Below, in pieces: positions 27,249 through 61,482 of a stretch of 64,000 nucleotides of DNA. The notes under the pieces are model-generated. The model was not told where the DNA came from. It saw only the letters and a program-made list of their open reading frames with translations, and searched no databases. The translations under genes were made by a program, and so were the position numbers. Each line of letters opens with the position of its first letter. Position 1 is the first letter of the stretch. The DNA lies in the NCBI GenBank assembly GCA_015062585.1, contig SUUJ01000001.1, positions 72,736 to 136,735 of the forward strand. Direction: 5' to 3'. The DNA is from Alphaproteobacteria bacterium. GTDB taxonomy: Bacteria; Pseudomonadota; Alphaproteobacteria; RF32; CAG-239.

Positions 27249-27257
27249 GAGGTAAAA

Positions 27258-27617: not shown

Positions 27618-27622
27618 AAACA

Positions 27623-29251: not shown

Positions 29252-29252
29252 A

Positions 29253-29615: not shown

Positions 29616-29619
29616 TAAA

Positions 29620-37087: not shown

Positions 37088-37306
37088 ACAATAGAACCGT
37101 TTGTTGTTACTACCTAAAAAGCTATATCAAAAAAAATACAAAAAATAAACTTATTTTTAAAAAGTTATCCAAAAGGGGATTTAAAATTAAGCTTAAACAA
37201 TAAGTTAGCGTTGTGGTTATATTGTTATTTTTTGCCGGAGTCAACAAAATTTTGTAGTATGAAGGTCTTTATACCGATATTTTCACTGTTTTATAAGGAC
37301 TTTAAT

Positions 37307-43399: not shown

Positions 43400-44760
43400 T
43401 ATACAATACTCCGGATGAAGTCGTGAATAACCTTAGATGTCTTTTTCATATCTTCCGGAGTATTGTTCTGAGCAACACCTACCCAAAATGTGTGATTCAT
43501 TATAAATTCTGTTCCGGGTAAACTAGCATAATGTATTTCATGTAATTCTTTTGCATTCAATAACTCTGAACTACCAATCCGTAAATTGATATCATTTTCC
43601 ACAATCATTGGTTGACGCAAAATGTTACCCGCAAACAATTGACGTGTTCCAATGCCATTAGCTTCTAGATACTTTACCAAGTCTTGCTTAGTAAATGGAG
43701 CATTCTCCTTTACTGAAATTAAAAAACCAAACCATGATGGAGTACAATTTTCTGTAATTTTTGGTAAAATTAAATAATCTTCTAAATCAGATAGTTCTCG
43801 CAACAGTGTTTCTGCATTTTCTTTACGCATAGCTAAAAATTTATCTAATTTTTTAAGTTGGGCTAAAGCAATGGCTGCTTGCCAATCAGTAATCTTTAAG
43901 TTATAACCGATGTGTGAATATGTATATTTATGATCATAACCTTTCGGTAAATTGCCTAACTTTAAGTTAAATCGATTATGACAAGTATCATCACAACCAG
44001 GTTTACACCAGCAATCACGTCCCCAATCTCTAAAAGACATAATGATGCGGTGTAATATAGGATCATTAGTTACGACAGCGCCACCTTCACCCATTGTAAT
44101 ATGATGCGCAGGATAAAAACTATATGTTCCTATATGACCAATTGTTCCGGCATATTTACCATTCCATTTTGCACCCAATGCATCACAACTATCTTCAATT
44201 ACCCAAAGATTATATTTTTGAGCTAAATCCATAATTTTATCCATATCATACATATTACCCAATGTATGAGCTAAGAAAATTGCTCTGGTTTTAGGTGAAA
44301 TAGCTTCTTCAATTTTGTTTACATCAATATTATATGTTCCAACCTCACAATCAACAAATACGGGAATCATACCATTTTGAATAATAGGATTCACTGTCGT
44401 TGGAAATCCTGCAGCCACGGCAATAACTTCATCACCTTTCTTTAATGCTCTGTCTTGTAGCTTGTGAGATGTCAAAGCTGAAAATGCTAACAAGTTGGCT
44501 GACGATCCAGAGTTTGTTGTAAGTGCATATTTTACACCTAATTTTTGTGCAAAGTCTTTTTCAAATTCATCATTAAAACGACCGGAGGTCAACCACATAT
44601 CCATAGAAGCCTCAAACATATTTATAAGTTCTTCGCATCCAATATTTTTACCCGATGCTGGAATATATTTTTTTTCTCTTTTTGCTTTCTCTTCTTCTAA
44701 ACAATTAGCGTAATCTTTAGCTAAATCCAAAATTTGTTGTTTGATGCTTTCTTTATTCAT
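43399..44760 (-). CDS. ddhC: CDP-6-deoxy-D-xylo-4-hexulose-3-dehydrase (E1)
   Basis: DegT-family fold with 'SFYPAHHITMGEGG', i.e. His in place of the PLP-binding Lys, the hallmark of the E1 dehydrase. 453 aa. Confidence 0.75.
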   Translation of the reverse strand: MNKESIKQQILDLAKDYANCLEEEKAKREKKYIPASGKNIGCEELINMFEASMDMWLTSGRFNDEFEKDFAQKLGVKYALTTNSGSSANLLAFSALTSHKLQDRALKKGDEVIAVAAGFPTTVNPIIQNGMIPVFVDCEVGTYNIDVNKIEEAISPKTRAIFLAHTLGNMYDMDKIMDLAQKYNLWVIEDSCDALGAKWNGKYAGTIGHIGTYSFYPAHHITMGEGGAVVTNDPILHRIIMSFRDWGRDCWCKPGCDDTCHNRFNLKLGNLPKGYDHKYTYSHIGYNLKITDWQAAIALAQLKKLDKFLAMRKENAETLLRELSDLEDYLILPKITENCTPSWFGFLISVKENAPFTKQDLVKYLEANGIGTRQLFAGNILRQPMIVENDINLRIGSSELLNAKELHEIHYASLPGTEFIMNHTFWVGVAQNNTPEDMKKTSKVIHDFIRSIV

Positions 44761-44761
44761 A

Positions 44762-45853
44762 TTATAAACTCCAATCTATATTTTTTGCTTGTGCGTTTGC
44801 TACAAATTCATTGATTTGTTTTTTTGTAAAATCAACCATATCTGTATCGTTTTTATAAAAAGCTTTGTACCATTCTGTTGTTTTAATAATTGCTTCTTCT
44901 GCACTATAAACAGGTTTCACACCCAGTTCTTTTTCTGCTTTTTCAATGTTAAGTTGAAGTAGGTTAGCCTCATGCAATCCATCAGCTTTGCCGACTTCAA
45001 CTTTCCCATTTCCCCAAACCTCAGAAACTTTTTGTGCGACCTCACAAACTTTTACATCTTTATTCATTTCCGGTCCAAAATTATACCCCTGAGCATATTT
45101 AGAGCCTTCTTCTAATAATTTTTGTCCTAAACGCAGATATCCGGCTAATGGCTCTAATACATGTTGCCAAGGACGAGTTGCTAAAGGATTTCTTATAAAG
45201 ACAGTTTCATTTTGTTGAAATGCTTTAATACAATCTGGTATAAGCCTGTCTTTTGCCCAATCACCACCACCAATAACATTACCCGCACGACCGGATGCCA
45301 AAGCATAAGGTTTACCATCAGTCAAGAATGAACGACGATATGAAGATGTTAGAATTTCAGAACATCCCTTGGATGAGGAATAAATATCATATCCGCCCAT
45401 TGGCTCGTCTTCTTTATATCCTTCTTTTTTCTCTTTGTTTTCATAGCATTTATCTGTGGTTACATTCACAAAGGCCTTAACAGATGGTGTTTTACGTGCG
45501 GCTTCTAAAACTTTTAGTGTGCCAATAATATTAGTTTCATATGTTTCCACAGGTTCAGAATATGAAAGACGAACAATCGGCTGCGCGGCTAAATGGAAAA
45601 CGATGTCAGGATTATGCTTGGCAAAATATGTTTCTAACTTTTGGTTTTCTCGAATATCCGCAATTAAACTATCATCTAAAGTATTTTCTAAATTTAACAC
45701 TTTAAACAAATGTTTTTCAGTATCAGGCAAAAGAGAATATCCGACAACTTTAGCACCCATCTGCTTCAACCAAAATGCAAGCCAACTTCCTTTAAAACCC
45801 GCATGACCGGTAATTAATACGGTTTTATTTGAATAAATATTATTAAATAGCAT
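44762..45853 (-). CDS. ddhB: CDP-glucose 4,6-dehydratase
   Basis: 'VLITGHAGFKGSWLAFWL' N-terminus. 363 aa. Between ddhA and ddhC. Confidence 0.75.
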   Translation of the reverse strand: MLFNNIYSNKTVLITGHAGFKGSWLAFWLKQMGAKVVGYSLLPDTEKHLFKVLNLENTLDDSLIADIRENQKLETYFAKHNPDIVFHLAAQPIVRLSYSEPVETYETNIIGTLKVLEAARKTPSVKAFVNVTTDKCYENKEKKEGYKEDEPMGGYDIYSSSKGCSEILTSSYRRSFLTDGKPYALASGRAGNVIGGGDWAKDRLIPDCIKAFQQNETVFIRNPLATRPWQHVLEPLAGYLRLGQKLLEEGSKYAQGYNFGPEMNKDVKVCEVAQKVSEVWGNGKVEVGKADGLHEANLLQLNIEKAEKELGVKPVYSAEEAIIKTTEWYKAFYKNDTDMVDFTKKQINEFVANAQAKNIDWSL

Positions 45854-45854
45854 G

Positions 45855-46637
45855 TTAATTATTCCAAATCTTCCAAGGGGCTCTATTTTCAGCCCATAAT
45901 TGATTTAAATCTTGCTTATCTTTCAACATGTCCATCGGATGCCAAAAGCCTACATGTTTATATGCATTCAATTGTTTATCCCTAGATAAAGATAATAAGG
46001 CACTTTTTTCAAACATTAACTCATCTGAATTTTCTGGAAGATAATTAAATATCGCAGGTTCACAAATCATAAATCCGGCATTGATCCAAGATCCGCTTTC
46101 CTTAGGTTTTTCCGCAAAATTTGATATTGTTCCATCACCTTCAATTCCTAATGACCCATATTTACCTTCAGGTTGATATGCTGTTAATGTGCATATTTTT
46201 CCGGATTTCTTATGAGCTTCTAATAAGTCGGGGATAGATATATCTGCTACACCATCACCATATGTCAACATAAAAGGTTCATTACCAATATATTTTTGAG
46301 CCTTTTTAATTCGTCCTGCAGTTAGAGTGTTTCTTCCGGTATATAGCAAAGTAACTTTAAATGGTTCACAATGATTTTGGTGCACTGTTATATCATTTGT
46401 TGATAAATCAACAGTTACATCGGAGTTATTCATATAGTAATTAACAAAGTAATCTTTTATTACCTCTTGCTTATAGCCGGTTAAAATAACAAAATCATTA
46501 TAACCATAGTGAGAATATATTTTCATTATATGCCATAAAATAGGATATCCTCCAATTCCGACCATAGGTTTAGGTTTAATTGAAGTTTCTTCTCCTAATC
46601 TTGTTCCTAGGCCACCGGCCAATATTACTACTTTCAT
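45855..46637 (-). CDS. ddhA: glucose-1-phosphate cytidylyltransferase
   Basis: 'MKVVILAGGLGTRL..SIKPKPMV.IGG.PILWHIM' motif. 260 aa. Confidence 0.8.
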   Translation of the reverse strand: MKVVILAGGLGTRLGEETSIKPKPMVGIGGYPILWHIMKIYSHYGYNDFVILTGYKQEVIKDYFVNYYMNNSDVTVDLSTNDITVHQNHCEPFKVTLLYTGRNTLTAGRIKKAQKYIGNEPFMLTYGDGVADISIPDLLEAHKKSGKICTLTAYQPEGKYGSLGIEGDGTISNFAEKPKESGSWINAGFMICEPAIFNYLPENSDELMFEKSALLSLSRDKQLNAYKHVGFWHPMDMLKDKQDLNQLWAENRAPWKIWNN

Positions 46638-47473
46638 TTTTTATTTCTCCTCAATTTAATTTGCAATTTTCCGATATGATAAATCTTATGAGACGATGTT
46701 TTTTCCTTATATAAAAACGGCGGTTTCTTTCCACAAAATGCGTCAAACCTACGACGCATACTTTTTGCCAAAAAGTTATAATTTTGCTTGTACATATCCG
46801 TGTGAAATGAAAAAATTTTATTGAACGAAAAGGTATACTTTTCAAGACTATCACTCAGCTTGGTAATCATCGATACTTCATGTTGCCGGTAATAAAACAA
46901 AACCTCCGGAATTCTATACACTCCAACGCCGTTTTCAATCAGAGAAAGCCAAAATTCATAATCTTCTAAGCCATAAATCATTTCTTTCTTGTAACCACCG
47001 ACTTTTTCCCAATCTGATTTTCTAAACAATGCCGTACAAAAGATACGATTACTATTTAAGATATCAGGAAACTTATATTCTTTTAGGGGCCACAGTCCTT
47101 GTTTGGCTCCAAAAAACTCTGCCAAACAGTAAACTATTCCTATTTTATCATTATTCTCAATAACATTAACGGCCTTTTCAATATAGGTAGGCCCAATTTT
47201 ATCATCAGCATCAAGAGGCAAGATATACTTACCAGTTGCTGCTGCGATACCGGTATTGCGAGCTTCGGCCAATCCCTCATTTTGTTTGTTGATTACTTTT
47301 GTCTTAGGTTTGGAATAATTATTTAGTAAAGTATTAGTTGCTTCATCCGTTGAACCGTCATTAACAATAATTATTTCAATATCATCATAACTCTGTGCCA
47401 AGCATGAATTAACAGCCTCATCAACATATTGTCCGTGATTGTAACAAGGAATTACTATACTAACTCTAGGCAT
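46634..47473 (-). CDS. family-2 glycosyltransferase
   Basis: 'VSIVIPCYNHGQYV..DIEIIIVNDGSTD' GT2 signature. Confidence 0.7.
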   Translation of the reverse strand: MPRVSIVIPCYNHGQYVDEAVNSCLAQSYDDIEIIIVNDGSTDEATNTLLNNYSKPKTKVINKQNEGLAEARNTGIAAATGKYILPLDADDKIGPTYIEKAVNVIENNDKIGIVYCLAEFFGAKQGLWPLKEYKFPDILNSNRIFCTALFRKSDWEKVGGYKKEMIYGLEDYEFWLSLIENGVGVYRIPEVLFYYRQHEVSMITKLSDSLEKYTFSFNKIFSFHTDMYKQNYNFLAKSMRRRFDAFCGKKPPFLYKEKTSSHKIYHIGKLQIKLRRNKK

Positions 47474-47476
47474 ATA

Positions 47477-48334
47477 TTACTTCTCCTGCAATTTAATTAC
47501 AGATTTGCTTGCAAACAGCGGCAATTTCTTAAAAAGGTATACTTTTGTGAGATTTGCTTGTTTTTTGATTGTTATAAAAGGAATAAAACCAAACAGTCTT
47601 ATTCTTGTGGTATGCTTGGCTTTGAATAAAAATTCTTCATACAATTGCGGGTTGTCATTTTTTACAAAAGACCAAATACTCAAAGTTGCCTGACGCATTT
47701 TATCACTTTGTCGGTGTGAGGTATTTTGTCCGTGATCTCTGTAATGAAATAAAATCTCGTTCAAATTGTGAAAATTGGTAAAAGGTATCAGTCTGCACCA
47801 CAAAGCGTAGTCTTCAGAGGGTGAAAATTCTTCTTCATAACGGATGTTATTTTCAGTCAAAACTGATTTTCTAATCATGGCGGCCGAGTGGTTTATACTG
47901 CAAACCCTCATTAAAGCCAGTTTTATATCGTGGTTATTGCTCGGATTTCTGGATGTTTTGCCTCTTATCATGGTTTTGACCTTGCAAGAAACAACCCCGA
48001 CATCCGAATGTTCGTCTAAATAAGCTACTTGCTTTTCCAGTCTGTCGGGTAAAGATATGTCATCATGGTCAAAAACTGCCAGATATTCGCCACTTGCCAT
48101 ATCTATAAGCTTATTTCTACTTGGCGTAATTCCTAGATTTTGCTCATTTTTAGAATATTTTATGCGTTTGTCTTTGTATGATTTTACAATTTCTTCTCGG
48201 TCATCATCAGGACAATCGTCAAGAATCAAAAATTCAAAGTCCGAAAAGGTCTGATCGAGGATAGATTCTATAGCCTCTCTTAAATACTTTTCATTAGTTT
48301 TATATACAGGCATTAACACCGATACTTTGGGCAT
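47477..48334 (-). CDS. family-2 glycosyltransferase, copy 1 of an inverted duplicate pair
   Basis: 'VSVLMPVYKTNEKYL..FEFLILDDCPDDD'. ~95 % aa identity to 48560-49417. Confidence 0.75.
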   Translation of the reverse strand: MPKVSVLMPVYKTNEKYLREAIESILDQTFSDFEFLILDDCPDDDREEIVKSYKDKRIKYSKNEQNLGITPSRNKLIDMASGEYLAVFDHDDISLPDRLEKQVAYLDEHSDVGVVSCKVKTMIRGKTSRNPSNNHDIKLALMRVCSINHSAAMIRKSVLTENNIRYEEEFSPSEDYALWCRLIPFTNFHNLNEILFHYRDHGQNTSHRQSDKMRQATLSIWSFVKNDNPQLYEEFLFKAKHTTRIRLFGFIPFITIKKQANLTKVYLFKKLPLFASKSVIKLQEK

Positions 48335-48385
48335 TGCTAATCCTTTTCACTTTGAATTGTCCTAATTTTATGGAACACGACAGCT

Positions 48386-48544: not shown

Positions 48545-48559
48545 ATAGAAGGAGTCAAA

Positions 48560-49417
48560 ATGCCTAGGGTCTCGGTATTGATGCCTGTTTACAAGACAAA
48601 AGAGAAATATTTGCGTGAAGCAATTGAAAGTATCTTAAACCAAACTTTTACAGATTTTGAGTTTCTTATTTTAGATGATTGTCCTGATGATGACCGAGAA
48701 AAAATTGTAAAATCATACAAAGACAAACGCATAAAATATTCTAAAAATGAACAAAATCTAGGAATTGCGCCAAGTAGAAATAAGCTTATAGATATGGCGA
48801 GTGGCGAATATCTTGCTGTTTTTGACCATGATGACATATCTTTACCCGACAGACTGGAAAAGCAAGTAGCTTATTTAGATGAACATCAGGATGTCGGTGT
48901 AGTTAGTTGTAAAATAAAAAATATGATTAGAGGTACAACCTCTAGAAATCCGAGCAATAACCACGATATAAAGCTGGCTTTAATGAGGGTTTGCAGTATA
49001 AACCACTCTTCCGCCATGATTAGAAAATCAGTTTTGACTGAAAATAACATCCGTTATGAAGAAGAATTTTCGCCTTCTGAAGACTATGCTTTGTGGTGCA
49101 GACTGATACCTTTTACCAATTTTCACAATTTGAACGAGATTTTGTTTCATTACAGAGATCACGGACAAAATACTTCACACCGACAAAGTGATAAAATGCA
49201 TCAGGCCACTTTGAGTATTTGGTCTTTTGTAAAAAATGATAATCCGCAATTGTATGAAGAATTTTTGCTCAAAGCCAAGCATACCACAAGAATAAGACTG
49301 TTTGGTTTTATTCCTTTTATAACAATCAAAAAACAAGCAAATCTCACAAAAGTATACCTTTTTGAGAAATTGCCGCTGTTTGCAAGCAAATCTGTAATTA
49401 AATTGCAGGAGAAATAA
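48560..49417 (+). CDS. family-2 glycosyltransferase, copy 2 of the inverted duplicate pair
   Basis: Near-identical to copy 1. Strong RBS aaggagtcaaaATG. Confidence 0.75.
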   Translation: MPRVSVLMPVYKTKEKYLREAIESILNQTFTDFEFLILDDCPDDDREKIVKSYKDKRIKYSKNEQNLGIAPSRNKLIDMASGEYLAVFDHDDISLPDRLEKQVAYLDEHQDVGVVSCKIKNMIRGTTSRNPSNNHDIKLALMRVCSINHSSAMIRKSVLTENNIRYEEEFSPSEDYALWCRLIPFTNFHNLNEILFHYRDHGQNTSHRQSDKMHQATLSIWSFVKNDNPQLYEEFLLKAKHTTRIRLFGFIPFITIKKQANLTKVYLFEKLPLFASKSVIKLQEK

Positions 49418-49420
49418 TAT

Positions 49421-50470
49421 ATGCCTAGAGTTTCGGTATTGATGCCTGTTCACAAGACAAAAGAGAAATATTTGCCCTTTATATCTTGTAAATTTAAACG
49501 AAAAATTACTACACTATTAGATTTAAAAAAACTCAGTGTAATTATAACTGTATATAATGAAAAACCCGAATATATCGAACGAGCAATAACATCTCTAAAT
49601 AATCAAAATTTTCAAAATCTTGAAATAATAGTTGTTAATGATGGTTCTAAAAATGAAGATACCATAAGGTTTTTAAATAATCTTAAACAAGATAACCTAA
49701 AAATAATTAACAAAGAAAACGGAGGACCGGGAAGTGCCAGAAATTTAGGATTACAACACACTTCTGGCGATGTCGTTGGATTTCTTGATGCTGATGATTG
49801 GGTAGAAAAAGATTTTTATTCCGAACTAATGTACAATTTAATAAGGTATAACGCAGATGTTGCATGTGGCGTTTTGATATGTAATGGCAAAAGTTATGAT
49901 AAATTTCCGCGATATATTGCCTCTACTGTTCAAGAAAAATTAAAATATATAAATAATGGTTCGGTTTGCTCAAAAATATTCAAAAAAGAATTGTTCAATG
50001 ACATAAAATTTTCCGAAGCCAAAATTTATTACGAAGATAATCCGGTTTTATTAAAGCTTTTGTTGCAAGCTGATAAAGTGTCTTTTAATCCAAAGGCTGA
50101 ATATATTTACTTTACCAATGATACATCCATAACCAGAAACAAAGATGAAAGTAAAGAACAAAAAAGAATAGATGATAGTGTGCTTATTTTAGAACAAATT
50201 AAAAAATGGGCTGATTCATATGATAAAAAAACATCTGATTTGATAATGCTGACGGTAGGTCAGATACTATTTCGTGCTTGGCAATATACTAAAAACGAGA
50301 ATTATCGCAAAAAAATAGATAAAATTTTTACAAAAGAACAAATGGCAATTCTTATAAAACCGCAATTAACATTTGCCCAAAAAATTTTCTCACTAAAAAA
50401 ATCAAAAGATAAATCTTATAAAATCATCACCTTTCTCGGATTTCAAATCAAATGGAGGCTCAAAAAATGA
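49421..50470 (+). CDS. family-2 glycosyltransferase with chimeric N-terminus
   Basis: First 18 aa (MPRVSVLMPVHKTKEKYL) and 55 nt are a third copy of the duplicated gene's 5' end. Then a distinct GT2 domain 'LSVIITVYNEKPEYI..IIVVNDGS'. Confidence 0.65.
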   Translation: MPRVSVLMPVHKTKEKYLPFISCKFKRKITTLLDLKKLSVIITVYNEKPEYIERAITSLNNQNFQNLEIIVVNDGSKNEDTIRFLNNLKQDNLKIINKENGGPGSARNLGLQHTSGDVVGFLDADDWVEKDFYSELMYNLIRYNADVACGVLICNGKSYDKFPRYIASTVQEKLKYINNGSVCSKIFKKELFNDIKFSEAKIYYEDNPVLLKLLLQADKVSFNPKAEYIYFTNDTSITRNKDESKEQKRIDDSVLILEQIKKWADSYDKKTSDLIMLTVGQILFRAWQYTKNENYRKKIDKIFTKEQMAILIKPQLTFAQKIFSLKKSKDKSYKIITFLGFQIKWRLKK

Positions 50471-51756
50471 GCCAGAAGAAAATATTTATAGTATCCCTAT
50501 CCGAGATTACACATGTTGTTGGTGGCGCAATTACCATAACAATAAATATGTGCAATTTTTTAGTAAAAGCCGGATATGAAGTATATTGTATTTGTTCTGA
50601 TAATATTGACGGCAGACCGCAGCAAATTGATGAAAAAGTAAATTTTATCAATTTGGCATACAGATATAATGGGCAACCGTTTTCTAAAGCGATAAATCAG
50701 TTGGCTGAAGAAGTTAAACCGGATTTGTTTATATTTTTCTTTTCCTTTTTATACGAGAATGCACAATTATCAGCTGGTTATATCAACACTCCTAAAGTGA
50801 TAATGTTTCACTCAAGACCTGATTTTTATTTTCAGAATAATTGCGACAAACTGAAAAAGCTATATTCTTGTGATAAAAATATTATATCGCAAATCTTGTT
50901 TGACAGTTATAAATCATTATTGCCTGATTTTATAAGGAATAGAAATGTTATAACCATTCCAAACGGTGTAAAAACAATTGATAAAACAATAAATACAGAC
51001 ATTGAACATAAAAAAATCATATATTTATCACGCATTAATTGTTGGAAAGGCTTAGAATTTTTAATCAACTCTTTTAAGTTGATTGCACAAAAATATCCTG
51101 ATTGGTCAATTGATATTTATGGTCAATCACAACCGGAAGAATATGTAAACGAACTAAAATGTTTAGTAAAAAAATTAAAGCTTGAAAAACAAATAAATTT
51201 TCAAGGAATAACAAGAAATCCTATAGAAACAATGATGAACTATGATTTTTGTGTATTTCCCTCATATTTTGAAGGATTTCCTATGGGGTTAATTGAATCA
51301 TTAAGTGTCGGATTACCTTGTATCGGTTTAGAAGAATGTTCCGGAGTTAATGAAATAATATCAGACGGTGAAAACGGATTTTTAGCACAAGAAGATTACG
51401 CAGACTTTTCTCAAAAAATAGAAGCCTTAATAAAAGACAAAGAGCTTAGAGAAAAAATGAGCCAAAAAGCTAAGCAAACAGCCGATAAATATGATAAGAA
51501 ACAGATTGATGAAAAATGGCTCTCTGTAATCAAAAATCTATTAAACAATGAGGCAATAAGTATAGAACAAACCCCGGATGTTAAAGGTAAGAAGTTATTT
51601 CCATTGGCTAAAATACAACAAATGTATAAACAGCAACACAAAAAATACATAAAGCCTTGGGATTATATCTTTTCTATCAAAAATTCTCAAAATAAAAAAC
51701 GCAAAATTATAACTGTTCTCGGTCTTCAAATTAAATTTAAAAGGAAGAGAAAATGA
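50452..51756 (+). CDS. family-4 (GT-B) glycosyltransferase
   Basis: 'EGFPMGLIESLSVGLPCIG' GT4 C-terminal motif. Confidence 0.7.
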   Translation: MEAQKMSQKKIFIVSLSEITHVVGGAITITINMCNFLVKAGYEVYCICSDNIDGRPQQIDEKVNFINLAYRYNGQPFSKAINQLAEEVKPDLFIFFFSFLYENAQLSAGYINTPKVIMFHSRPDFYFQNNCDKLKKLYSCDKNIISQILFDSYKSLLPDFIRNRNVITIPNGVKTIDKTINTDIEHKKIIYLSRINCWKGLEFLINSFKLIAQKYPDWSIDIYGQSQPEEYVNELKCLVKKLKLEKQINFQGITRNPIETMMNYDFCVFPSYFEGFPMGLIESLSVGLPCIGLEECSGVNEIISDGENGFLAQEDYADFSQKIEALIKDKELREKMSQKAKQTADKYDKKQIDEKWLSVIKNLLNNEAISIEQTPDVKGKKLFPLAKIQQMYKQQHKKYIKPWDYIFSIKNSQNKKRKIITVLGLQIKFKRKRK

Positions 51757-52979
51757 AAATCGTTTATGTTACAATGGAATATATCAATCCGGATAATCTA
51801 AATGTAATAGATGGTGGCTTAGCAAATTATTTGCATAAGATAACAACCTGTTTATATAAAATGGGACACGATATAACGGTTATTGTCGCGGATTCTTATC
51901 CTAATAAGCATATAGACTATAATGGAATAGATGTAATATATATAAATAATAAATTTCAAAAAAAACTAATTCAAAAAATATTATGGCCATTTATTACCAA
52001 AAAGAAGCGAAAGTTGTTAAAAAGAAACTTTTTGCATTACGCAATAAGTAACGCCATAAATAAAATTAATAAAAAAAATAAAATAGATGTTATACAGTAT
52101 GCCAGTTGCCGAGGGCTTGGAAGATATCCTCAAAAAGATATTCCGTCTTGTGTGAGAATATCCTCTTATGCAAAATTAATGCAAAAATTTTATAGTTATC
52201 ATGATGATTGTGAAATTGAAGCGGAAACTTTACAAATTAAAAATAATAAATTTATTTTTGGACCTTCTTCGCATATAGCCAATTATATTAAAGATGATTT
52301 GGGTGTAAATAAAGATATTAAAATAATCGAGTCACCTTATTCTGAATGCAAAATATCAGCAGATAACACTATATTAAATGAATTGCAAAGCAAAATTAAA
52401 AGTGCTCCATTTTTGTTATTTTTCGGTACTATAGGAGAATTAAAAGGGTGTAAGGTTATTGCAGATTGCATTTATGATATTTTAAACCAATATCCGAATT
52501 TACATATGGTGTTGGTTGGTAAAAATGCAACTTTTATCAATGATATTGATTACGCTCAAATAATTAATAAAAAGGCTAAAGAACATGCAAACAGAGTTAT
52601 TCGTTTTCCTAGCCTTCCTCATTCACAATTATATCCCCTTATAAGTAATTGTTTAGCTGTTGTAATGCCGTCTTTAACGGAAAATTTTTCCAATGCTTGT
52701 GTTGAAGCCATGCGCTTGAAAAAAATAGTTATCGGAACCGAAGGAAATTTTTCTCAGCTCATAACTGACGGGCAGAACGGATTCTTAGCAAAAGTGGGAG
52801 ATTCCGAAAGTCTCAAAGCTAAAATTGTCGAGGTTATGTCATTAAACGCAGATAAAAGACAAGAAATTGAAGAAAAATCATTTCAAAGGACAGAAAGCTT
52901 GTCGCCTGAAAATATATGCAATCAGCTTTTGGATTATTACAAATTTATCATTAAAAATTGGGAGAATAAAAATGAATAA
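51753..52979 (+). CDS. family-4 (GT-B) glycosyltransferase
   Basis: 'SLTENFSNACVEAMRLKKIVIGTEG' E-x7-E-like GT4 region. Confidence 0.65.
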   Translation: MKIVYVTMEYINPDNLNVIDGGLANYLHKITTCLYKMGHDITVIVADSYPNKHIDYNGIDVIYINNKFQKKLIQKILWPFITKKKRKLLKRNFLHYAISNAINKINKKNKIDVIQYASCRGLGRYPQKDIPSCVRISSYAKLMQKFYSYHDDCEIEAETLQIKNNKFIFGPSSHIANYIKDDLGVNKDIKIIESPYSECKISADNTILNELQSKIKSAPFLLFFGTIGELKGCKVIADCIYDILNQYPNLHMVLVGKNATFINDIDYAQIINKKAKEHANRVIRFPSLPHSQLYPLISNCLAVVMPSLTENFSNACVEAMRLKKIVIGTEGNFSQLITDGQNGFLAKVGDSESLKAKIVEVMSLNADKRQEIEEKSFQRTESLSPENICNQLLDYYKFIIKNWENKNE

Positions 52980-53730
52980 TACATCTGTCGGAATAATAGG
53001 ATGCGGTTTTGTCGGTGGCGCATTAAAGAGATGGCTAGAAGAACACAACCAATCAGTTAACATTCTTGTTTCTGACCCGCCAAAGGGAATGAATGATGAT
53101 GTATCAAAGTCTGATGTTATATTTATCAGTATTCATATACCGACAGAGGCTGACGGCACACAGGATTTGACATTGTTAACCGAGATAATCAATGGCTTGC
53201 CAATTGATAAACCGATATTTATCAGGACAACCATTGTTCCTGGTACTGCTGATAAGTTATCAATAAAAACAGGTCGAAATGTATATTTTATGCCGGAATT
53301 TTTAACTGAACGCACAGCTTATGAAGATTTTTGCTCGCAACCGATGATTTTTACAGCCGAAGAAGAGTTACTTAAAAATATCTTTATCGGAAAAAAATAT
53401 ATTACAATGACTTCTTTAGAGGCTGAAATAACAAAATATGCACACAATGTTTTTGGCGCACTGAAAGTTACTTATTTTAACGGTATTTATGACTTATGCA
53501 AAAAGATGGAAGCTAATTATCGTAAAATTCAACAAGGTATTTTGTTGAGCGGTTATATAAACGCTCCTCATACTATGGTACCGGGTCCTGACGGCAAATT
53601 CGGATATGGCGGAAAATGTTTTCCAAAAGATGTTAATGCATTAACCAAAATGACTGAAGGATTGCCAATATACAATTTGTTAAAAGAATTAAAACCATTG
53701 AATATTGAATTTAGAGGGGAAGATAAATAA
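52972..53730 (+). CDS. UDP-glucose 6-dehydrogenase-like protein, C-terminally short (~252 aa)
   Basis: 'VGIIGCGFVGGAL', 'FMPEFLTERTAYEDF', 'KYAHNVFGALKVTYFN', catalytic-Cys region 'GYGGKCFPKDVNAL'. ORF stops ~30 aa later, lacking the UDP-binding C-terminal domain. Confidence 0.55.
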   Translation: MNNTSVGIIGCGFVGGALKRWLEEHNQSVNILVSDPPKGMNDDVSKSDVIFISIHIPTEADGTQDLTLLTEIINGLPIDKPIFIRTTIVPGTADKLSIKTGRNVYFMPEFLTERTAYEDFCSQPMIFTAEEELLKNIFIGKKYITMTSLEAEITKYAHNVFGALKVTYFNGIYDLCKKMEANYRKIQQGILLSGYINAPHTMVPGPDGKFGYGGKCFPKDVNALTKMTEGLPIYNLLKELKPLNIEFRGEDK

Positions 53731-54749
53731 TGAAACTGCTTGTAACAGGAACAGCCGGTTTTATAGGGCATTTTGTAGCATTGCAACTGTTAAAAGACGG
53801 ACATGAAGTTGTTGGCGTTGATAATGTAAACGATTACTATGATGTAAATATAAAAGAGGCAAGATTAAAAAATTTGCACAAATTTGAAAATTTTATCGAG
53901 GCCAGAGTAGATTTGATTGATAGAAATGCTTTGGAAAAAATATTCAATGAACACAAGCCACAGCGTGTTCTAAATCTTGCAGCACAGGCCGGCGTCAGAT
54001 ATTCATTTGAAAATCCGTATGCCTATGTGGATTCAAATTTGATTGGCTTTGTAAATTTGGAAGAACAATGCAGACATCATAATGTAGAACATTTTGTGTT
54101 TGCCTCTTCGGCGTCCGTATATGGAGCCAATAACAAATTGCCTTGGGATGAAGCTGATGGTTGTAATCATCAATTGAGTCTTTATGCGGCTACTAAAAAA
54201 GCAAACGAGGTAATCGGACATTCTTATGCGCATTTGTTTAATCTTCCGACAACCGGATTAAGATTTTTTAACGCCTATGGACCTTGGGGACGCCCTGATA
54301 TGGCTTTGTTTATATTTGTTAAAAACATTATTGAAGGCAAACCCATAAATGTGTTTAACAACGGAAAAATGGTACGAGATTTCACCTATGTAGAAGATAT
54401 TGCAAGAGGTGTTTGCAAGGTATTACTCGGTCCGGTCCCGACAATTGATAAAAATTGGGATAGAGGCGCAACTGTTCCGGATCCTTCACGCAGCGGTGTG
54501 GCACCTTTCAGAATTTATAACATCGGTAATTCTAATCCTGTTGAACTAATGCGTTATATTGAGCTTATGGAAAAAGAAATCGGTAAAAAAGCTATTATCA
54601 ATTTTATGCCTATCCAACCCGGAGAAATCGTCAAATCAGAAGCAGACAATTCAGATTTGTACGAAACATTTGACTTCAAACCTCAAGTAAAGGTGGAGGA
54701 AGGTGTTCATAATTTTGTCAAATGGTATAGAGAATTTTACGGAGTATAA
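53730..54749 (+). CDS. UDP-glucuronate 4-epimerase (GalE/SDR family)
   Basis: 'LLVTGTAGFIGHFVA', 'YAATKKANE' YxxxK catalytic motif. 339 aa. Downstream of the Ugd-like gene. Confidence 0.7.
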   Translation: MKLLVTGTAGFIGHFVALQLLKDGHEVVGVDNVNDYYDVNIKEARLKNLHKFENFIEARVDLIDRNALEKIFNEHKPQRVLNLAAQAGVRYSFENPYAYVDSNLIGFVNLEEQCRHHNVEHFVFASSASVYGANNKLPWDEADGCNHQLSLYAATKKANEVIGHSYAHLFNLPTTGLRFFNAYGPWGRPDMALFIFVKNIIEGKPINVFNNGKMVRDFTYVEDIARGVCKVLLGPVPTIDKNWDRGATVPDPSRSGVAPFRIYNIGNSNPVELMRYIELMEKEIGKKAIINFMPIQPGEIVKSEADNSDLYETFDFKPQVKVEEGVHNFVKWYREFYGV

Positions 54750-54751
54750 AT

Positions 54752-55339
54752 ATGAGAATATTTAACAAAAAGAAAGGTTATGACGGATTACGAGAATTTT
54801 TTCTGTTTGGAATAAAAGTATACTCGTATAAGAGAAAAAACAAAAACTCTGAGCACAATAACCCTAACAAAGCTGAGTTATTAAAAAGTATGGGCGTTAT
54901 TATAGGTGATAATGTTAAAATATGGGGCATGCCTAATCTTCCTACCGAATACTTTTTTATAGAGATTGGTGATAATTCGACAATTTCTTCAAATGTTACA
55001 TTTTTAACTCATGATGGTTCTATGAATGCTTGTCGGGAATATTATAAAGGTTGGTATGAAACAATTCCCTCTCCTTTGGGTAAAATAAAAGTCGGAAAAA
55101 ATTGTTTTGTCGGAATAAACAGTATCATTTTACCAAATGTAATCATTGGAAATAATTGTGTAATCGGAGCCGGTAGTGTTGTAACCAAAAATGTTCCTGA
55201 CGGTGAAGTATGGGCCGGAAATCCTGCTCGTTTCATCAAAACGACCAAAGAGTTATCAGACAAATTTGAAATAATTATGAATAGCAAACAACAAGCAGAA
55301 CTTGACGAATTTGCTAGAAAACAAGGAGTTTATAAATAA
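54752..55339 (+). CDS. hexapeptide-repeat O-acetyltransferase (WbbJ/MAT-like) with basic N-terminal extension
   Basis: 'VGINSIILPNVIIGNNCVIGAGSVV' left-handed beta-helix repeats. Confidence 0.65.
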   Translation: MRIFNKKKGYDGLREFFLFGIKVYSYKRKNKNSEHNNPNKAELLKSMGVIIGDNVKIWGMPNLPTEYFFIEIGDNSTISSNVTFLTHDGSMNACREYYKGWYETIPSPLGKIKVGKNCFVGINSIILPNVIIGNNCVIGAGSVVTKNVPDGEVWAGNPARFIKTTKELSDKFEIIMNSKQQAELDEFARKQGVYK

Positions 55340-55341
55340 AA

Positions 55342-57642
55342 ATGTTCAGAGTTGAAAAAAACAATCATAAGATAAAAGTTAACGTACTAGGCTTAAAACT
55401 TTCCTTTAAGGAACGGAAATTTTTAAACCCTTTTAGGCATCCAGTATTTCGTAATGACGATGTATCCGTAGACTCTCATATGGAGCATTTTAAGGAATTT
55501 TGTGAGATTTTTCATAAATACGGCTATACACAGCTTCATGCAATTAACTTATACGGATATACAAACTGTAACTTTTTGACTAGTGGTTTACCGACTCCTT
55601 ATGAGGGCTATAAGAATTTAAGTGCAATTCCAAATGACAAAATAAGAGAACTTTCACAAGGCAAGTTTATTGGAGATAATAAAGAACTTGTAGATTATAT
55701 AAATTCTATTCCTGATGAGATCGCTCTGCATGGCCTTTATCATACAAATTATTCTACAATGTCTTATGATGAACAATACAAGGATATCGAGGAAGGATTA
55801 AGACTATTAAAAGAGTTATTTCCAAACAAGAAAGTAAAAGTTTTTGTAGCTCCGTTTAATAAAACAAATAAAGACACATATAAAGTGTGTAAAGTGTTTG
55901 GATTGCGTTTAAGCGCTCTTGAGGGACAACACCTTGAAGATATGATTGAATATCATAATTATGGAATAAAAAATGGTGAAATATATCGTTATCATCATCA
56001 CAGATTTTATCCGGAATCTACATTTAATAGCTATGATTTAAGTTTAGAAAAATTAGATAGATTTTTGGGCTATAAGAAGCATTCAAAACGTAAATTGCCT
56101 AATATAAATGTTTTTGCTGATATCGTACATAAGTATAATGCGCAGGAATGGTTTATATATTCATTTAATGATTTTAAAAACATACAACATGCCTATCTTC
56201 CATATAAATGGATTTTAAAAAACATAAAAAAGAAAAGAAGTATTCTTGCAACGGGCTGTGGTGTAGGCGATATGCTTTATCATTTATATAAAAACGGCTA
56301 TAAACATTTATCCGGTTATGACTATGACGAAAAAGCGATAAATGCAGCAAAAGAAATTACAGAAACAGTTTATGCTTCTATTGATTTTGCAGTGCAAGAT
56401 GGGCGGGACCCAAAGCTAAACAAGAAATACGATGTAATTGTTGGTGTAAATTGGATATATCATGTTCCTAACTATGGTTTAGAGGATTTTATTAAAGTAC
56501 ATGTCCCATATATTAATAGTGACGGATATTTTATTTTTGATACGGTTGATATTAAATACAACGAAGTGCCAAACAATCAATATGGGGTTCAAGATTGGGA
56601 CAAACCAGTAGAACAAAGACGACCAAGTGAATATTTATACAGATATTCAAAAGATGATGTTGAAAAACTTGCAAAAAAATATAATTGCGATGTTGTATAT
56701 TCAAAATTTATTGAAAATATAGTGCCTCATGCATTTTATGTTTTAAAAAGGAAAAAACTTCCCAAAATATGCCTGTTGTGTGACCGTCCGAATTGGGCAC
56801 ATGATCATAGTGCACAAGAAATAAAAAAGCAACTTTCTAATGATTTTGATATTGATATTAAATATGTAATCAAAAAACCAAAATTAAAACCTAGAAAATA
56901 TGACCTAATTCATGTATTTTTCTGGGGAGAAGATTATTATAAAAAATTTAAATTTCCTAAAAGTAAAATAATAAAACAAGTTTCATCACACAGATGGCAG
57001 GACAACCCTATGTATGGCCCTTTAACACCTGTTGAATTCCAAAAGAAATATTTGGATGATGCAAAATTTGTAAGCTGCCCTTCTAAGATTCTTTATGATT
57101 TATTAAAAGATGTATGTCCTAATTTGTTTTTGATTGGGAAAGGCTATTCTCCTAAGAAGTTCTATTACAAGAATGGTAGAGCAGGCGAGATGTCAATTTG
57201 TTGGGCAGGAAATATTAAAGATCCGGTAAAAGGGGTTGAAGAAATATTAATTCCTGCAACAAAAGATAAATATAACTTGAATTTGGCTTCAGATTTAAAA
57301 CATGAGGAATTGTTTGATTTTTACAATTCAAATGACATTTATGTCGTTACTTCACGCAATGAAGCCGATCCGTTGCCTTTGATAGAATCAATGGCTTGTG
57401 GTTGTTTCCCTGTAGCGAACTATGTGGGTATCGCTCCGGAATTAATTCGTCATAAAGAAAACGGATATTTGGTTAAAGAAAGGACTGTTGAAGCTTATCA
57501 AAAAGCTTTTGAATGGTGTAAGAATAATATTGAATATATTAGAAGCCAACAGGAAAAAATATCAAAAGAAATTTATGAAACTCGCCGTTGGGAAATCAAG
57601 GCACAAGAATATAAAAAGATGTATGATGAATGTTTGAAATAA
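55342..57642 (+). CDS. multidomain protein: deacetylase-like region + SAM-methyltransferase + GT4-like C-terminal domain
   Basis: 'ILATGCGVGDMLYHLYKNGYKHLSGYDYDEKAI' class-I MTase motif I. C-terminal 'ADPLPLIESMACGCFPVANYVGIAPELIRHKENGYLV' GT-B motif. Confidence 0.55.
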   Translation: MFRVEKNNHKIKVNVLGLKLSFKERKFLNPFRHPVFRNDDVSVDSHMEHFKEFCEIFHKYGYTQLHAINLYGYTNCNFLTSGLPTPYEGYKNLSAIPNDKIRELSQGKFIGDNKELVDYINSIPDEIALHGLYHTNYSTMSYDEQYKDIEEGLRLLKELFPNKKVKVFVAPFNKTNKDTYKVCKVFGLRLSALEGQHLEDMIEYHNYGIKNGEIYRYHHHRFYPESTFNSYDLSLEKLDRFLGYKKHSKRKLPNINVFADIVHKYNAQEWFIYSFNDFKNIQHAYLPYKWILKNIKKKRSILATGCGVGDMLYHLYKNGYKHLSGYDYDEKAINAAKEITETVYASIDFAVQDGRDPKLNKKYDVIVGVNWIYHVPNYGLEDFIKVHVPYINSDGYFIFDTVDIKYNEVPNNQYGVQDWDKPVEQRRPSEYLYRYSKDDVEKLAKKYNCDVVYSKFIENIVPHAFYVLKRKKLPKICLLCDRPNWAHDHSAQEIKKQLSNDFDIDIKYVIKKPKLKPRKYDLIHVFFWGEDYYKKFKFPKSKIIKQVSSHRWQDNPMYGPLTPVEFQKKYLDDAKFVSCPSKILYDLLKDVCPNLFLIGKGYSPKKFYYKNGRAGEMSICWAGNIKDPVKGVEEILIPATKDKYNLNLASDLKHEELFDFYNSNDIYVVTSRNEADPLPLIESMACGCFPVANYVGIAPELIRHKENGYLVKERTVEAYQKAFEWCKNNIEYIRSQQEKISKEIYETRRWEIKAQEYKKMYDECLK

Positions 57643-57652
57643 GGAGAATGTT

Positions 57653-58379
57653 ATGCAGAATTTACAAGAAAATACATGGACTGATGAAGAAGTAAAACGC
57701 TTTTGGGATTATCAATCTACAATTCCGGAAAATTATTTTACATATCAAATTGGCGATAAATTGGTAGACTTTTTTAGAGAATATATAAAAGATGATATTT
57801 TTGTTTTAGACTACGGTGCAGGTGCAGGGTTTTTTAGTGAACAAGTCTTGAAAAAAACTAATGCTAAAATAACATCTTGCGATTTTTCACCTGAATCTGT
57901 TAAAAAAGAAATTGAAAGATGTTCAAAATATCATAATTATCAAGGTGGATATACTGTTGATGAATTAATCAAACAAAATAAAAAGTTTGATTTAATTTTT
58001 TTGTTTTGAAGTAATTGAACACTGCAACGACAATTATTTAAATTTAACATTTGAAAATTTTAAAAATCTATTATCAGAAAACGGCAAAATTATTGTTTCA
58101 ACGCCAAATAATGAAAATCTGAGAAGAAATTATATTGCTTGCCCTTGTTGCGGAAAAGTTTTTCACAGATGGCAGCATGAAAGAAGCTGGACCAAAGAAT
58201 CCTTATCAGAATATGCTAAAAATCAAGGATTGGATGTTATAAGTGTTAATCCTACTAATTTTACTATCACTAAGAGTAAAAAAACAATTTTAACAAAATT
58301 TGGGTTAGCAAAAAGAAAAGACATAATAGAAAAGAATAATCCCAATGGGTATAATTTAATTGGCATATTTAGAAATTAA
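57653..58379 (+). pseudogene. SAM-dependent methyltransferase interrupted by a +1/-1 frameshift at a T7 tract
   Basis: Frame 1 ends 'DLIFLF*' at 58009. Shifting one nt after the T7 run (57988-57994) gives a continuous C-terminal ORF '..EVIEHCNDNYLNL..CPCCGKVFHRWQHE..' ending at 58379. Confidence 0.6.
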
Positions 58380-58397
58380 TATTTATAGGATAAAGAA

Positions 58398-59480
58398 ATG
58401 AAATTAATTGAAAAAATAAAGGAAAAAGATGGCGCAAGGCAAATAAATATTTGTGGCATAAAAGTGTTAAGATACAATAAATATGATAATTTGTTGTTGA
58501 ATACCTTTTCTATAAGAACTCATCACGATTGGACGTGTTCCTATAAATATATGACTATTTTAGGTTTTAAGTTTATCATTTGGCCAAGATATATGATGAT
58601 TTATGCAAAGCGTTTTAAAAAAGAACTTTCTTTGAAAGATAAAAAATATATTTTGGAATATCAATTTAAAAGAAGAATGGGATATAAACCAAATATTGAT
58701 AATCCAACAACTTTTAATGAAAAACTTCAATGGTTAAAATTGTATTATCACAATCCTGTGATGACAACTTGTGCAGATAAATATTCAGTTAAAAGTTATG
58801 TCTCTGAAAAAGTTGGCACAGAGCATGTAGTACCTTTACTTGGAGTTTGGGATAAACCTGAAGATATAGAGTTTGATAAACTCCCTAATCAGTTTGTTCT
58901 AAAAACTACCTGGGGCTGTGGTAATAATTTAATAGTAAAAGACAAATCAAAACTTAATATTGAAGAAACAAGAACTATATTTAAGAAATGGCTGAATATC
59001 AAAAAAAATCACTATTATCTTTCTTTCGAATGGGGATATAAAAATATTGTTCCAAGAATTATAGCTGAAGAATATGTTGGCGAATTAGGTGACAATTTGA
59101 CATGTTATAAAATTTTTAACTTTAATTCTAAGCCATATTTAATTCAAGCTGTTTTTGACGACAAAACAAGTTATGAAACAATCAATTATTACGATTTGAA
59201 TTGGAATAAATTGGACTTGCGGCAAAATTTTCCAAATAATGAAAATGAAATGCCAAAACCAAAAAATCTTGATAAAATGCTTAAATTATCCGAAAAATTG
59301 GCTCAAGAATTTCCTTATTTTGTAAGGGTAGATTTTTATGAATTCGGAAATAAAGTTCTATTCAGCGAATTCACATTTTATTCCGATAATGGTATGGCTA
59401 AATTTCAACCAGAAGAATGGGATAAAAAACTTGGCAAGTTAATTCATCTGCCAACAGATAATAAATCAAAAGTAGGATAA
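58398..59480 (+). CDS. ATP-grasp-fold (TupA-like) amidoligase-family protein, tentative
   Basis: 360 aa, 'FVLKTTWGCGNNLIVKDKSK' region reminiscent of ATP-grasp nucleotide-binding strands. Common in polysaccharide loci. Not verified. Confidence 0.35.
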   Translation: MKLIEKIKEKDGARQINICGIKVLRYNKYDNLLLNTFSIRTHHDWTCSYKYMTILGFKFIIWPRYMMIYAKRFKKELSLKDKKYILEYQFKRRMGYKPNIDNPTTFNEKLQWLKLYYHNPVMTTCADKYSVKSYVSEKVGTEHVVPLLGVWDKPEDIEFDKLPNQFVLKTTWGCGNNLIVKDKSKLNIEETRTIFKKWLNIKKNHYYLSFEWGYKNIVPRIIAEEYVGELGDNLTCYKIFNFNSKPYLIQAVFDDKTSYETINYYDLNWNKLDLRQNFPNNENEMPKPKNLDKMLKLSEKLAQEFPYFVRVDFYEFGNKVLFSEFTFYSDNGMAKFQPEEWDKKLGKLIHLPTDNKSKVG

Positions 59481-60920: not shown

Positions 60921-61006
60921 TGGTAGGGGTAGTCAGACTCGAACTGACACGGCCTGAGGCCACAAGATTTTGAGTCTAGCGCGTCTACCAGTTCCGCCAT
61001 ACCCCC
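60921..61006 (-). tRNA. tRNA-Leu (CAA)
   Basis: Minus-strand read GGGGGTATGGCGGAACTGGTAGACGCGCTAGACTCAAAATCT..long variable arm..GTCAGTTCGAGTCTGACTACCCCTACCA. Anticodon loop CTCAAAA. 86 nt. Confidence 0.85.
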
Positions 61007-61116: not shown

Positions 61117-61482
61117 TTACGCATTACCGGATAGGCCTCTGGCTATGTTCATATTGATACTGATTAGAATATCAAGCTTTTGCGGTTCCGGTTTAGCGAT
61201 GATTTCTGTGGTGCGCTTAAAAATGAAATTAGCCAAATTTAAGATATTTTGCTTTATCTCAAGCGGCTGAGGACAGTCTTCTTCCTGCATGGCCGAAGCC
61301 AAAATACTCCACAAGCGTCGATTCTTATCCAAAGCCTTGCTCAAATCTTCTTTTGCTTTGTTTTCCCAGTTTTCTTTAACGGAATTAAGGGCAGAAGCGG
61401 TATTTATCAAGGCTCTTATTTCCAATTCGGCCTCGTTCATACCGGCAATTTCGTTTTGAATATATCCGCCTGTTGTATTCAT
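61117..61482 (-). CDS. FlaF-like flagellin-synthesis regulator (tentative)
   Basis: 121 aa helical protein. Size and alphaproteobacterial context. Similarity judged from memory only. Confidence 0.3.
   Translation of the reverse strand: MNTTGGYIQNEIAGMNEAELEIRALINTASALNSVKENWENKAKEDLSKALDKNRRLWSILASAMQEEDCPQPLEIKQNILNLANFIFKRTTEIIAKPEPQKLDILISINMNIARGLSGNA

Follow-up and report, generated by a model that had tools for sequence, protein, structure and literature searches.

A portable cationic mini-domain, modeled as a beta-meander, on unrelated glycan-assembly enzymes of an alphaproteobacterial gene cluster

Why would unrelated enzymes of one gene cluster carry the same short basic sequence at their ends? 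The question is raised by a 64,000-nt stretch of alphaproteobacterial DNA (contig SUUJ01000001.1, positions 72,736 to 136,735; here called the window), which holds a glycan-synthesis cluster of approximately 23 kb composed only of soluble enzymes (37920 to 60901, from the open reading frame [ORF] lists and Pfam matches). An earlier note on this DNA had described a basic motif at the termini of five enzymes of the cluster. We found that this motif belongs to a portable, cationic mini-domain (the module), modeled as a beta-meander, that is appended to many unrelated glycan-assembly enzymes.

Copies of the module in the glycan cluster

All five peptides that the earlier note had placed at protein termini were found as described, within called genes. 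We scored them with a profile of 148 foreign modules, from which sequences of the window, its close relative L005, and protein P0184 were left out. As the control, 30 composition-preserving shuffles of all window ORFs reached a maximum of 13.6 bits, with a median of 7.5 bits. The highest score, 34.7 bits, was that of the C terminus of GT4a, a family 4 glycosyltransferase (GT; gene 50467/50452-51756; PF00534, 4.3e-33). This copy lies at 51658 to 51753 on the plus strand, is of the type B described below ('IFSIKN...KIITVLGLQIKFKRKRK'), and gives a protein end that reads ...WDYIFSIKNSQNKKRKIITVLGLQIKFKRKRK. A second type B copy (24.4 bits; 50375 to 50467, plus strand) forms the C terminus of the GT2 enzyme GT2c (gene 49421-50470; PF00535, 2.7e-33), which ends ...AQKIFSLKKSKDKSYKIITFLGFQIKWRLKK*, and this module is present as well in the orthologues from L001 and L005. 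The hexapeptide acetyltransferase (gene 54752-55339; PF00132, 3.6e-16) begins MRIFNKKKGYDGLREFFLFGIKVYSYKRKNK and carries a type A copy, 'MRIFNKKKGYDGLREFFLFGIKVYSYKRK', at its N terminus (31.8 bits; 54752 to 54844, plus strand). The N-terminal module is retained in the acetyltransferase homologue from L008, which is 45% identical. The TupA-like ATP-grasp enzyme (gene 58398-59480; PF14305, E = 2.4e-55) begins MKLIEKIKEKDGARQINICGIKVLRYNKY, with a type A-like copy (29.9 bits; 58398 to 58484, plus strand); in the L001 orthologue, many residues of this copy are changed and the pattern is retained. The orthologous cluster in L001, which is 92 to 99% identical, retains every window copy.

At or above the shuffle maximum, the copies found with this profile were confined to the glycan cluster, and the best ORF elsewhere in the window scored 6.2 bits. 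The copies are thus not explained by the codon bias of an AT-rich proteome, which had been raised as a possible source of the motif. An earlier profile, built only from the N termini of 23 foreign TupA homologues, gave 24.3 bits for the acetyltransferase, 22.0 for GT4a, 14.5 for GT2c, and 14.3 for TupA; its controls peaked at 10.5 bits for 20 composition-preserving shuffles and at 7.9 bits for reversed sequences. The same element stands at the N termini of TupA homologues in unrelated bacteria, for example, MKIFSKERFQNGRRHIYFCGIKIFSYSKK and KIFSIKNEYSNNKKYKVITVLGIKIKKRIK.

By the profile test, four of the five reported copies are solid, at 24 to 35 bits and far above the shuffled controls, and the fifth is only a look-alike. 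This fifth peptide, 'MFRVEKNNHKIKVNVLGLKLSFKERK', is the N terminus of a 766-residue deacetylase/methyltransferase/GT4 enzyme (gene 55342-57642). It scored 5.0 bits (55342 to 55419, plus strand), which is noise level and inside the shuffle range. Its position and pattern fit, and it is identical in the near orthologue from L001; its membership in the module family is uncertain. A divergent second copy, 'NTFSIRTHHDWTCSYKYMTILGFKFIIWPRY', follows the first in tandem in the TupA-like enzyme (58497 to 58592, plus strand). At 10.9 bits it is borderline and inside the shuffle range, and it is also conserved in the proteins P0001 and P0002 and in the Succinivibrio protein P0006.

Other enzymes of the cluster end in hairpins of a related kind. 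The C terminus of GT2a (gene 46634-47473) is an uncertain look-alike, 'HKIYHIGKLQIKLRRNKK*', noted by eye and not recovered by the profile (46637 to 46720, minus strand). GT2b (gene 47477-48334) and its inverted duplicate (gene 48560-49417) each have two 'LFGFIP...IKK'-type hairpin variants at the C terminus (47480 to 47632, minus strand, and 49262 to 49414, plus strand), which do not pass the profile. These 'h-h-G-h-x-h' and 'LFGFIP..IKK' hairpins of GT2a and the duplicated GT2b occur in homologues as well: the L044 homologue of GT2b ends 'RLFGRIPLIKIKNNTIYLFEFIPVFKIKWR*', the GT4a homologues P0229, P0230, P0239, and P0251 have a GT2b-type variant in place of the module, and a few members of the GT4a family have 'YYLFGFIPLLSIEEK' hairpins instead.

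We found that the module stretches are translated. The genes abut or overlap by 4 nt, which leaves no room for alternative starts or stops, and plausible ribosome-binding sites stand ahead of the module-bearing ATGs; that of the acetyltransferase gene lies 3 nt past the upstream stop, with a GGAG upstream. The stretches are also included in independent gene calls on the orthologous contigs L001, L082, and L083. In the window carriers, the Pfam catalytic domains all lie outside the modules. The GT4 domains of GT4a end at approximately residue 349, the GT2 domain of GT2c ends at residue 168, and the ATP-grasp domain of the TupA-like enzyme spans residues 108 to 349, downstream of the modules in residues 1 to 65. 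The low DNA identity described in the earlier note was confirmed, at 43 to 60% for pairs of copies and 60% for GT2c and GT4a. The synonymous codons differ between copies as well. Thus, the conservation is in the protein and not in a nucleotide element, and a conserved DNA junction element was rejected.

Shape and distribution of the module

The motif had been described as 16 residues long. We found instead a conserved unit of approximately 30 residues, with an additional first strand ('IFSIKN' or 'MKIFxK') upstream. The unit comprises strand 1 (KIFxK or IFSIKN), a basic turn, a hydrophobic strand 2 that ends in a near-invariant Gly, strand 3 (h-K-h-x-h-x), and a Lys/Arg tail. It occurs in two types. 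The type A consensus is MKIFxKxKxPNGRRHIYFCGIKIFSYKKK, with conservation of 0.89 for the Gly, 0.94 for the Lys at G+2, and 0.77, 0.79, 0.85, and 0.84 for R, Y, S, and Y, respectively. The type B consensus is KIFSIKNxxxNKKYKVITILGIKIKIKKK, with 0.94 for the Gly and 0.92 for the Lys at G+2.

AlphaFold2 (AF2) models suggest that the module is a discrete beta mini-domain of three short antiparallel strands, that is, a beta-meander and not an amphipathic helix. In the model of the window TupA-like enzyme (32-sequence alignment; mean predicted local distance difference test [pLDDT] score, 90), there are two successive three-stranded meanders. The strands of copy 1 are at residues 4 to 8, 14 to 18, and 21 to 26 (pLDDT of approximately 80), and those of copy 2 are at 37 to 43, 48 to 54, and 57 to 61 (pLDDT of 85 to 87). 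The block-mean pLDDT over residues 1 to 60 is 66 to 87, with its minimum in the linker between the two copies. In GT4a (60 sequences; pLDDT of 95), the C-terminal strands are at 402 to 406, 412 to 417, and 420 to 425 (pLDDT of 81 to 88). Beta strands are therefore predicted at both an N and a C terminus, at pLDDT values of 80 to 88, and the amphipathic helix that had been offered as an alternative was not found.

The earlier note had called the motif basic and amphipathic; the module is basic and hydrophobic. Every copy is cationic, with a mean net charge of approximately +8 (range, +2 to +14), compared with +0.24 per 30 residues in the rest of the carriers. Lys and Arg make up 28% of its residues and Phe and Tyr 13%. 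The longest uninterrupted hydrophobic run is approximately 6 residues, and hydrophobic residues lie on both faces of the type A sheet.

How widespread is the module? With the TupA alignment as the query, a scan that took a single genome for each species gave 79 loci (1.3 Mb) from many phyla, so that the foreign loci were ascertained through TupA homologues. We ran the module profile on their six-frame ORFs with a threshold of at least 12 bits. There were 59 ORFs with a module, compared with 1 in the shuffled controls. They were distributed over 27 loci, with the module N-terminal in 31, C-terminal in 13, and at an internal domain junction in 15. The statement that the element is always at a terminus thus holds for the five peptides reported from the window and fails for 15 of the 59 foreign copies. 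TupA ORFs account for 29 of the carriers (of 104 TupA ORFs in total), and the other 30 are not TupA proteins. The latter include glycosyltransferases (GT2, GT4, GT8, GT10 fucosyltransferase, WbsX, TOD1/MUCI70, and DUF4422) as well as FkbM and other methyltransferase classes, hexapeptide acetyltransferase, radical SAM, and DUF1796 proteins. A 32-position profile run against 1.84 billion representative proteins gave 64 matches at an E value of at most 1e-3 (best, 2e-8). In most of these, the match starts at residue 1, and several consist of two copies in tandem. Pfam annotation of 42 of the 64 added Caps_synth, LicD, RgpF, GT9, GT29, GT56, GT92, and RfbT, and the carriers belong to more than 20 unrelated families. 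Many close homologues have no module, among them 75 of the 104 TupA ORFs and the GT4a homologues of Bacteroidaceae.

In the GT4a family, the C-terminal module is kept down to roughly 40% identity and is missing in relatives from Bacteroidaceae and Sphingobacteriia. Approximately 25 residues upstream of the module, members of this family share another conserved element, 'LFP(I/L)xKI..M' (window GT4a residues ~375 to 393; P0185 to P0241). It is predicted to form a helix (H380-393), and homologues without a module retain it as well, for example, '...ADVKKIVRM*'.

Fusion proteins of a glycosyltransferase and TupA (L013, L004, L010, L014, and L062) have the module in the interdomain linker. In Campylobacter jejuni Cj1438, a "domain of unknown function" has been placed at residues 326 to 452, between the GT2 and TupA domains (PMC11800379). 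The place is equivalent to that of the module in the fusions.

The carriers are clustered: they occur in 27 loci, compared with 39.7 expected and a minimum of 32 in 2,000 randomizations. The A or B flavor tracks the locus and the lineage and not the enzyme family or the terminus; L014 and L016 have six type B copies each, and L065 and L075 have three type A copies each. Such a dependence of subtype on locus would follow if there were a single target for all copies within a cell. Clustering by locus and homogeneity of subtype fit spread within genomes, coevolution with one shared target, or both.

We found no earlier description of this element. Pfam envelopes on full-length carriers all exclude the module, and scanning isolated and tandem modules against Pfam at an E value of at most 10 gave only noise (BamE, 0.17; DCAF4, 0.16). 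An NCBIfam scan of isolated modules returned nothing relevant, and the precomputed Pfam lists (up to PF28160) held no additional family on module-bearing homologues. An hmmsearch with module profile A2 against 177,635 PDB sequences gave no match at an E value of at most 10. Foldseek against PDB with the whole TupA model returned only generic ATP-grasp folds and was uninformative on the module. When the module alignment was used in a word-indexed search for homologues, no more than 5 short fragments came back. Full-text literature searches for motif strings (IFSIKN, FGIKIFSY, and others) gave no match; keyword searches on glycosyltransferase membrane association, beta-hairpins, and lipooligosaccharide (LOS), which did not extend to subscription journals or InterPro/CDD, gave no description of the element, and papers on the lipocone and on TupA-related proteins do not mention it. 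Nearly all of the best representative matches are unnamed metagenome proteins, one being annotated as a WecF-like transferase (MBO4745991.1), and this may explain why the module has gone unnoticed. The module appears to be undescribed as a domain family, with a likely function class that is familiar.

A possible membrane tag and its rivals

What, then, does the module do? Its choice of enzymes is selective. When the ORFs of module-positive loci were grouped into families and annotated, the module was on none of 31 sugar-nucleotide enzymes (epimerases/dehydratases, UDP-glucose dehydrogenases, aminotransferases, and UDP-galactopyranose mutase) and on 42 of 83 transferases and modifying enzymes (Fisher p = 3e-8). 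The module therefore marks the enzymes whose substrate is the growing lipid-bound glycan. In the module-rich loci (L004, L005, L012, L014, and L016) and in the window cluster, soluble enzymes follow one another in long series, and membrane proteins are almost absent. In the window cluster, the ORF lists and Pfam gave no phosphoglycosyl transferase, flippase, polymerase, ABC transporter, or other integral membrane protein. The Bac_transf phosphoglycosyl transferase was present in 0 of 27 positive loci and in 11 of 52 other loci, Wzx in 0 and 9, and Wzy in 0 and 6. Where these three are missing, each enzyme would have to reach the membrane-bound acceptor unaided, as in LOS-type assembly.

We favor the reading that the module is a peripheral membrane or anionic-lipid targeting tag, for which we see about an even chance. 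The earlier note had proposed a shared tag that anchors the enzymes in the membrane or docks them into one complex. A shared, autonomous, protein-level tag is borne out and anchoring fits it better; docking into one complex is unsupported. In the proposed mechanism, recombination would have attached the module to the N terminus, the C terminus, or an interdomain linker of many soluble enzymes, unrelated to one another, that make or modify lipid-linked glycans. Its polybasic tail and its cationic surface, studded with Tyr and Phe, would attach to anionic lipid head groups at the inner membrane, on the side that faces the cytoplasm, the candidates being those of phospholipid, undecaprenyl-pyrophosphate (Und-PP), and the phosphates of lipid A-core. 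The tagged enzymes would thereby be concentrated beside the membrane-bound acceptor, and any assembly-line effect would come from colocalization on the membrane rather than from direct docking of enzyme to enzyme. Lys, Arg, Tyr, and Ser, the conserved residues, are typical phosphate-contacting residues.

Several observations weigh against this reading. The pLDDT of 81 to 96 along the C-terminal extension of GT4a suggests that the meander may be packed on the enzyme, and the hydrophobic residues on both faces of the type A sheet call for a packing surface, which could be protein. A sugar-phosphate or a protein could be the ligand of the conserved polar residues just as well. Taxonomy confounds the lack of flippase and polymerase genes in positive loci, as 26 of 49 diderm loci and 0 of 26 Firmicutes or candidate phyla radiation loci are positive (assignable loci, classified manually by record titles). 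Transporters may also lie outside the 20-kb locus windows.

Membrane targeting by short elements has precedents. Campylobacter Cst-II has a C-terminal membrane-association tail, and MinD, FtsA, and MreB have transplantable amphipathic-helix elements for reversible peripheral membrane binding. Neisseria LgtC (GT8) and the Helicobacter pylori alpha-1,3-fucosyltransferase FucT (GT10) have helical membrane-association tails at their C termini (PMC4202792). Like the tails of LgtC, FucT, and Cst-II, the module is a short basic and hydrophobic/aromatic terminal extension outside the catalytic fold of soluble enzymes that work on a membrane-bound glycolipid, and in the GT8 and GT10 carriers (L016 and L075) it is at the same end, the C terminus. 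Unlike the LgtC and FucT tails, which are alpha-helical and family specific, it is a predicted beta-meander with a signature shared by more than 20 families and also occurs N-terminally, internally, and in tandem. It resembles the MinD, FtsA, and MreB sequences in being small and portable, in not being needed for the fold, and in occurring in some homologues but not in others, and it differs from them in its beta structure, its much higher charge, and its conserved first strand and turn.

Two further comparisons concern the unit itself. CW_binding (choline-binding) and MORN repeats are beta-hairpin units that bind phosphorylated envelope or lipid ligands. The module shares with them a length of approximately 20 to 30 residues, a Gly-centered hairpin, aromatic residues, and occasional tandem arrangement; unlike them it is cytoplasmic, usually single copy, and attached to enzymes, and the Pfam scan of isolated modules at an E value of at most 10 gave no match to either family (PF02493 and PF01473). 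C-terminal sorting signals (LPXTG, PEP-CTERM, and GlyGly-CTERM) are strictly C-terminal and tripartite, with a signature, a hydrophobic transmembrane helix of 15 to 20 residues, and a basic cluster. We rejected a sorting signal on the N-terminal, internal, and C-terminal positions of the module (31, 15, and 13 ORFs) and its short hydrophobic runs. The carriers, moreover, are cytoplasmic enzymes without signal peptides.

If the copies do not meet lipid, they may meet each other. Were the meanders to bind a common scaffold or to zip by beta-sheet augmentation into a multienzyme complex, the clustering of carriers in few loci, the single subtype per locus across unrelated enzymes (as in coevolution with one partner), the tandem copies, and the partly hydrophobic character of both sheet faces would all be accounted for. 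Docking domains of polyketide synthases and nonribosomal peptide synthetases, including those of the beta-hairpin type, are likewise short elements at the ends of enzymes that act in succession in a pathway. Those domains, however, form complementary N- and C-terminal pairs that encode order, whereas the module copies are of one like-charged type, and we found no complementary acidic element or partner family in the positive loci. All copies are cationic and without complementary pairs, so that homotypic contacts would repel. No nonenzymatic family is enriched in the positive loci, the best candidate being a methyltransferase family (4 positive loci and 1 negative), and the window cluster has no scaffold-like protein. 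Within-locus clustering is also partly an effect of ascertainment and lineage, and the module occurs inside fusion proteins, and we regard docking as unlikely. Recognition of the lipid-linked acceptor itself (Und-PP, the head group of lipid A-core/3-deoxy-D-manno-oct-2-ulosonic acid, or an anionic nascent glycan) rather than of bulk membrane would explain why Lys at G+2 is conserved at 92 to 94% and the type A R, Y, S, and Y at 77 to 85%, which is beyond the needs of a nonspecific polybasic anchor. It would also suit the confinement of the module to glycan-acting enzymes and, among the assignable loci, to diderm lineages and to loci without phosphoglycosyl transferase, Wzx, or Wzy, a pattern compatible with assembly on lipid A-core. 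Yet the glycans and chemistries of the carriers are so different that a common ligand could only be the lipid carrier, and the taxonomic restriction is confounded by horizontal spread among AT-rich gut bacteria; such an acceptor reader is distinctly unlikely. In its most far-reaching version, which seems rather improbable, the meander would be an undescribed reader of lipid head groups (Und-PP or lipid A-core phosphates) and the mark of a "tag-and-gather" mode by which gut diderms assemble glycans. Clusters of soluble enzymes only, lacking an initiating transferase, a flippase, a polymerase, and a transporter, would then rely on one shared 30-residue tag that gathers as many as nine enzymes at a single membrane-bound acceptor, spreads between enzyme families within a genome, and coevolves as a set.

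The remaining explanations deny the module any targeting role. It could be a structural accessory that packs on the catalytic domain or serves homo-oligomerization or solubility, and this is where the high pLDDT over the whole C-terminal extension of GT4a (predicted template modeling score, 0.89) and over TupA module 2 (85 to 87, continuous with the domain) would point. One conserved element cannot suit the surfaces of more than 20 unrelated folds, however, nor does this role agree with placement at either end, internally, or in tandem or with absence from many close homologues (TupA and GT4a alike), and we judge it very unlikely. Nor is it credible, except at the outer margin, that the module is an artifact, whether of the Lys/Ile/Asn/Phe-rich composition of an AT-rich genome or of a translated DNA junction or recombination element. 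Its residues do have AT-rich codons, the window copies do lie within approximately 100 nt of gene boundaries, and the cluster does contain recombination scars. Copies are nevertheless conserved across phyla and at internal positions, and a composition artifact was rejected because neither shuffled nor reversed sequences came near the observed scores.

The cluster around the carriers and the meaning of the module

The glycan cluster is bordered by a resolvase/invertase-like gene (37211 to 37894) on one side and by tRNA-Leu(caa) (60921 to 61006) on the other, and its GC content of 27 to 34% is below that of the flanks. It looks like a horizontally acquired island. Within it, a 907-nt inverted repeat (47439 to 48345 and 48549 to 49455; 90% complementary, with a 203-nt spacer) yields two divergent copies of a 285-residue GT2 gene, namely, GT2b and its duplicate. 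The first 55 nt of this gene recur, at 95%, at the start of the next gene (49421 to 49475). Thus, GT2c opens with an 18-residue relic of its neighbor's N terminus, and its own GT2 domain begins at residue 39 (Pfam). The inverted repeat and the 55-nt recurrence are recombination scars within the cluster.

The multidomain enzyme of the 55342-to-58397 region has 766 residues here and 548 in the L001 orthologue, which is without the methyltransferase insert. Downstream of it lie a truncated methyltransferase ORF of 118 residues (57653 to 58009) and then approximately 390 nt without an ORF; this remnant is probably a decaying or rearranged methyltransferase gene. A UDP-glucose/GDP-mannose dehydrogenase-like gene at approximately 52975 to 53730 encodes approximately 252 residues and is without the C-terminal UDP-binding domain. 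The short form is conserved in L001, L082, and L083, and the gene immediately downstream is UDP-glucuronate-epimerase-like. On the minus strand, 41690 to 46637 encodes a thiamine-diphosphate (acetolactate-synthase-like) enzyme beside a glucose-1-phosphate cytidylyltransferase, a CDP-glucose 4,6-dehydratase, and a DegT/E1-like enzyme, a set reminiscent of pathways for CDP-linked 3,6-dideoxy or branched-chain (yersiniose-type) sugars.

The cluster lies between flagellar genes, namely, a hook-protein-like ORF and, on the L001 orthologue, FlaF (window 34109 to 35320 and 61117 to 61482). The glycan could serve flagellin glycosylation rather than lipopolysaccharide. Farther away, at approximately 16900 to 30300, there is a prophage-like block with a terminase large subunit, portal, scaffold/capsid, and tail-fibre-like proteins and a lysozyme (29811 to 30281).

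As this case shows, conserved mini-domains of approximately 30 residues can be spread over more than 20 families and still escape curated libraries. If the module is a portable tag for the membrane or the lipid carrier, annotators would gain a domain that flags lipid-linked-glycan enzymes as opposed to sugar-nucleotide enzymes, which would help with ambiguous methyl-, acetyl-, and amidotransferases. It would show enzymologists where to truncate for soluble constructs, and it would offer synthetic glycoengineering a very small beta-structured targeting tag. For the poorly studied gut bacteria that carry it, such a tag would explain how dozens of unrelated soluble enzymes of LOS, O-antigen, and capsule synthesis reach their membrane-bound substrates.

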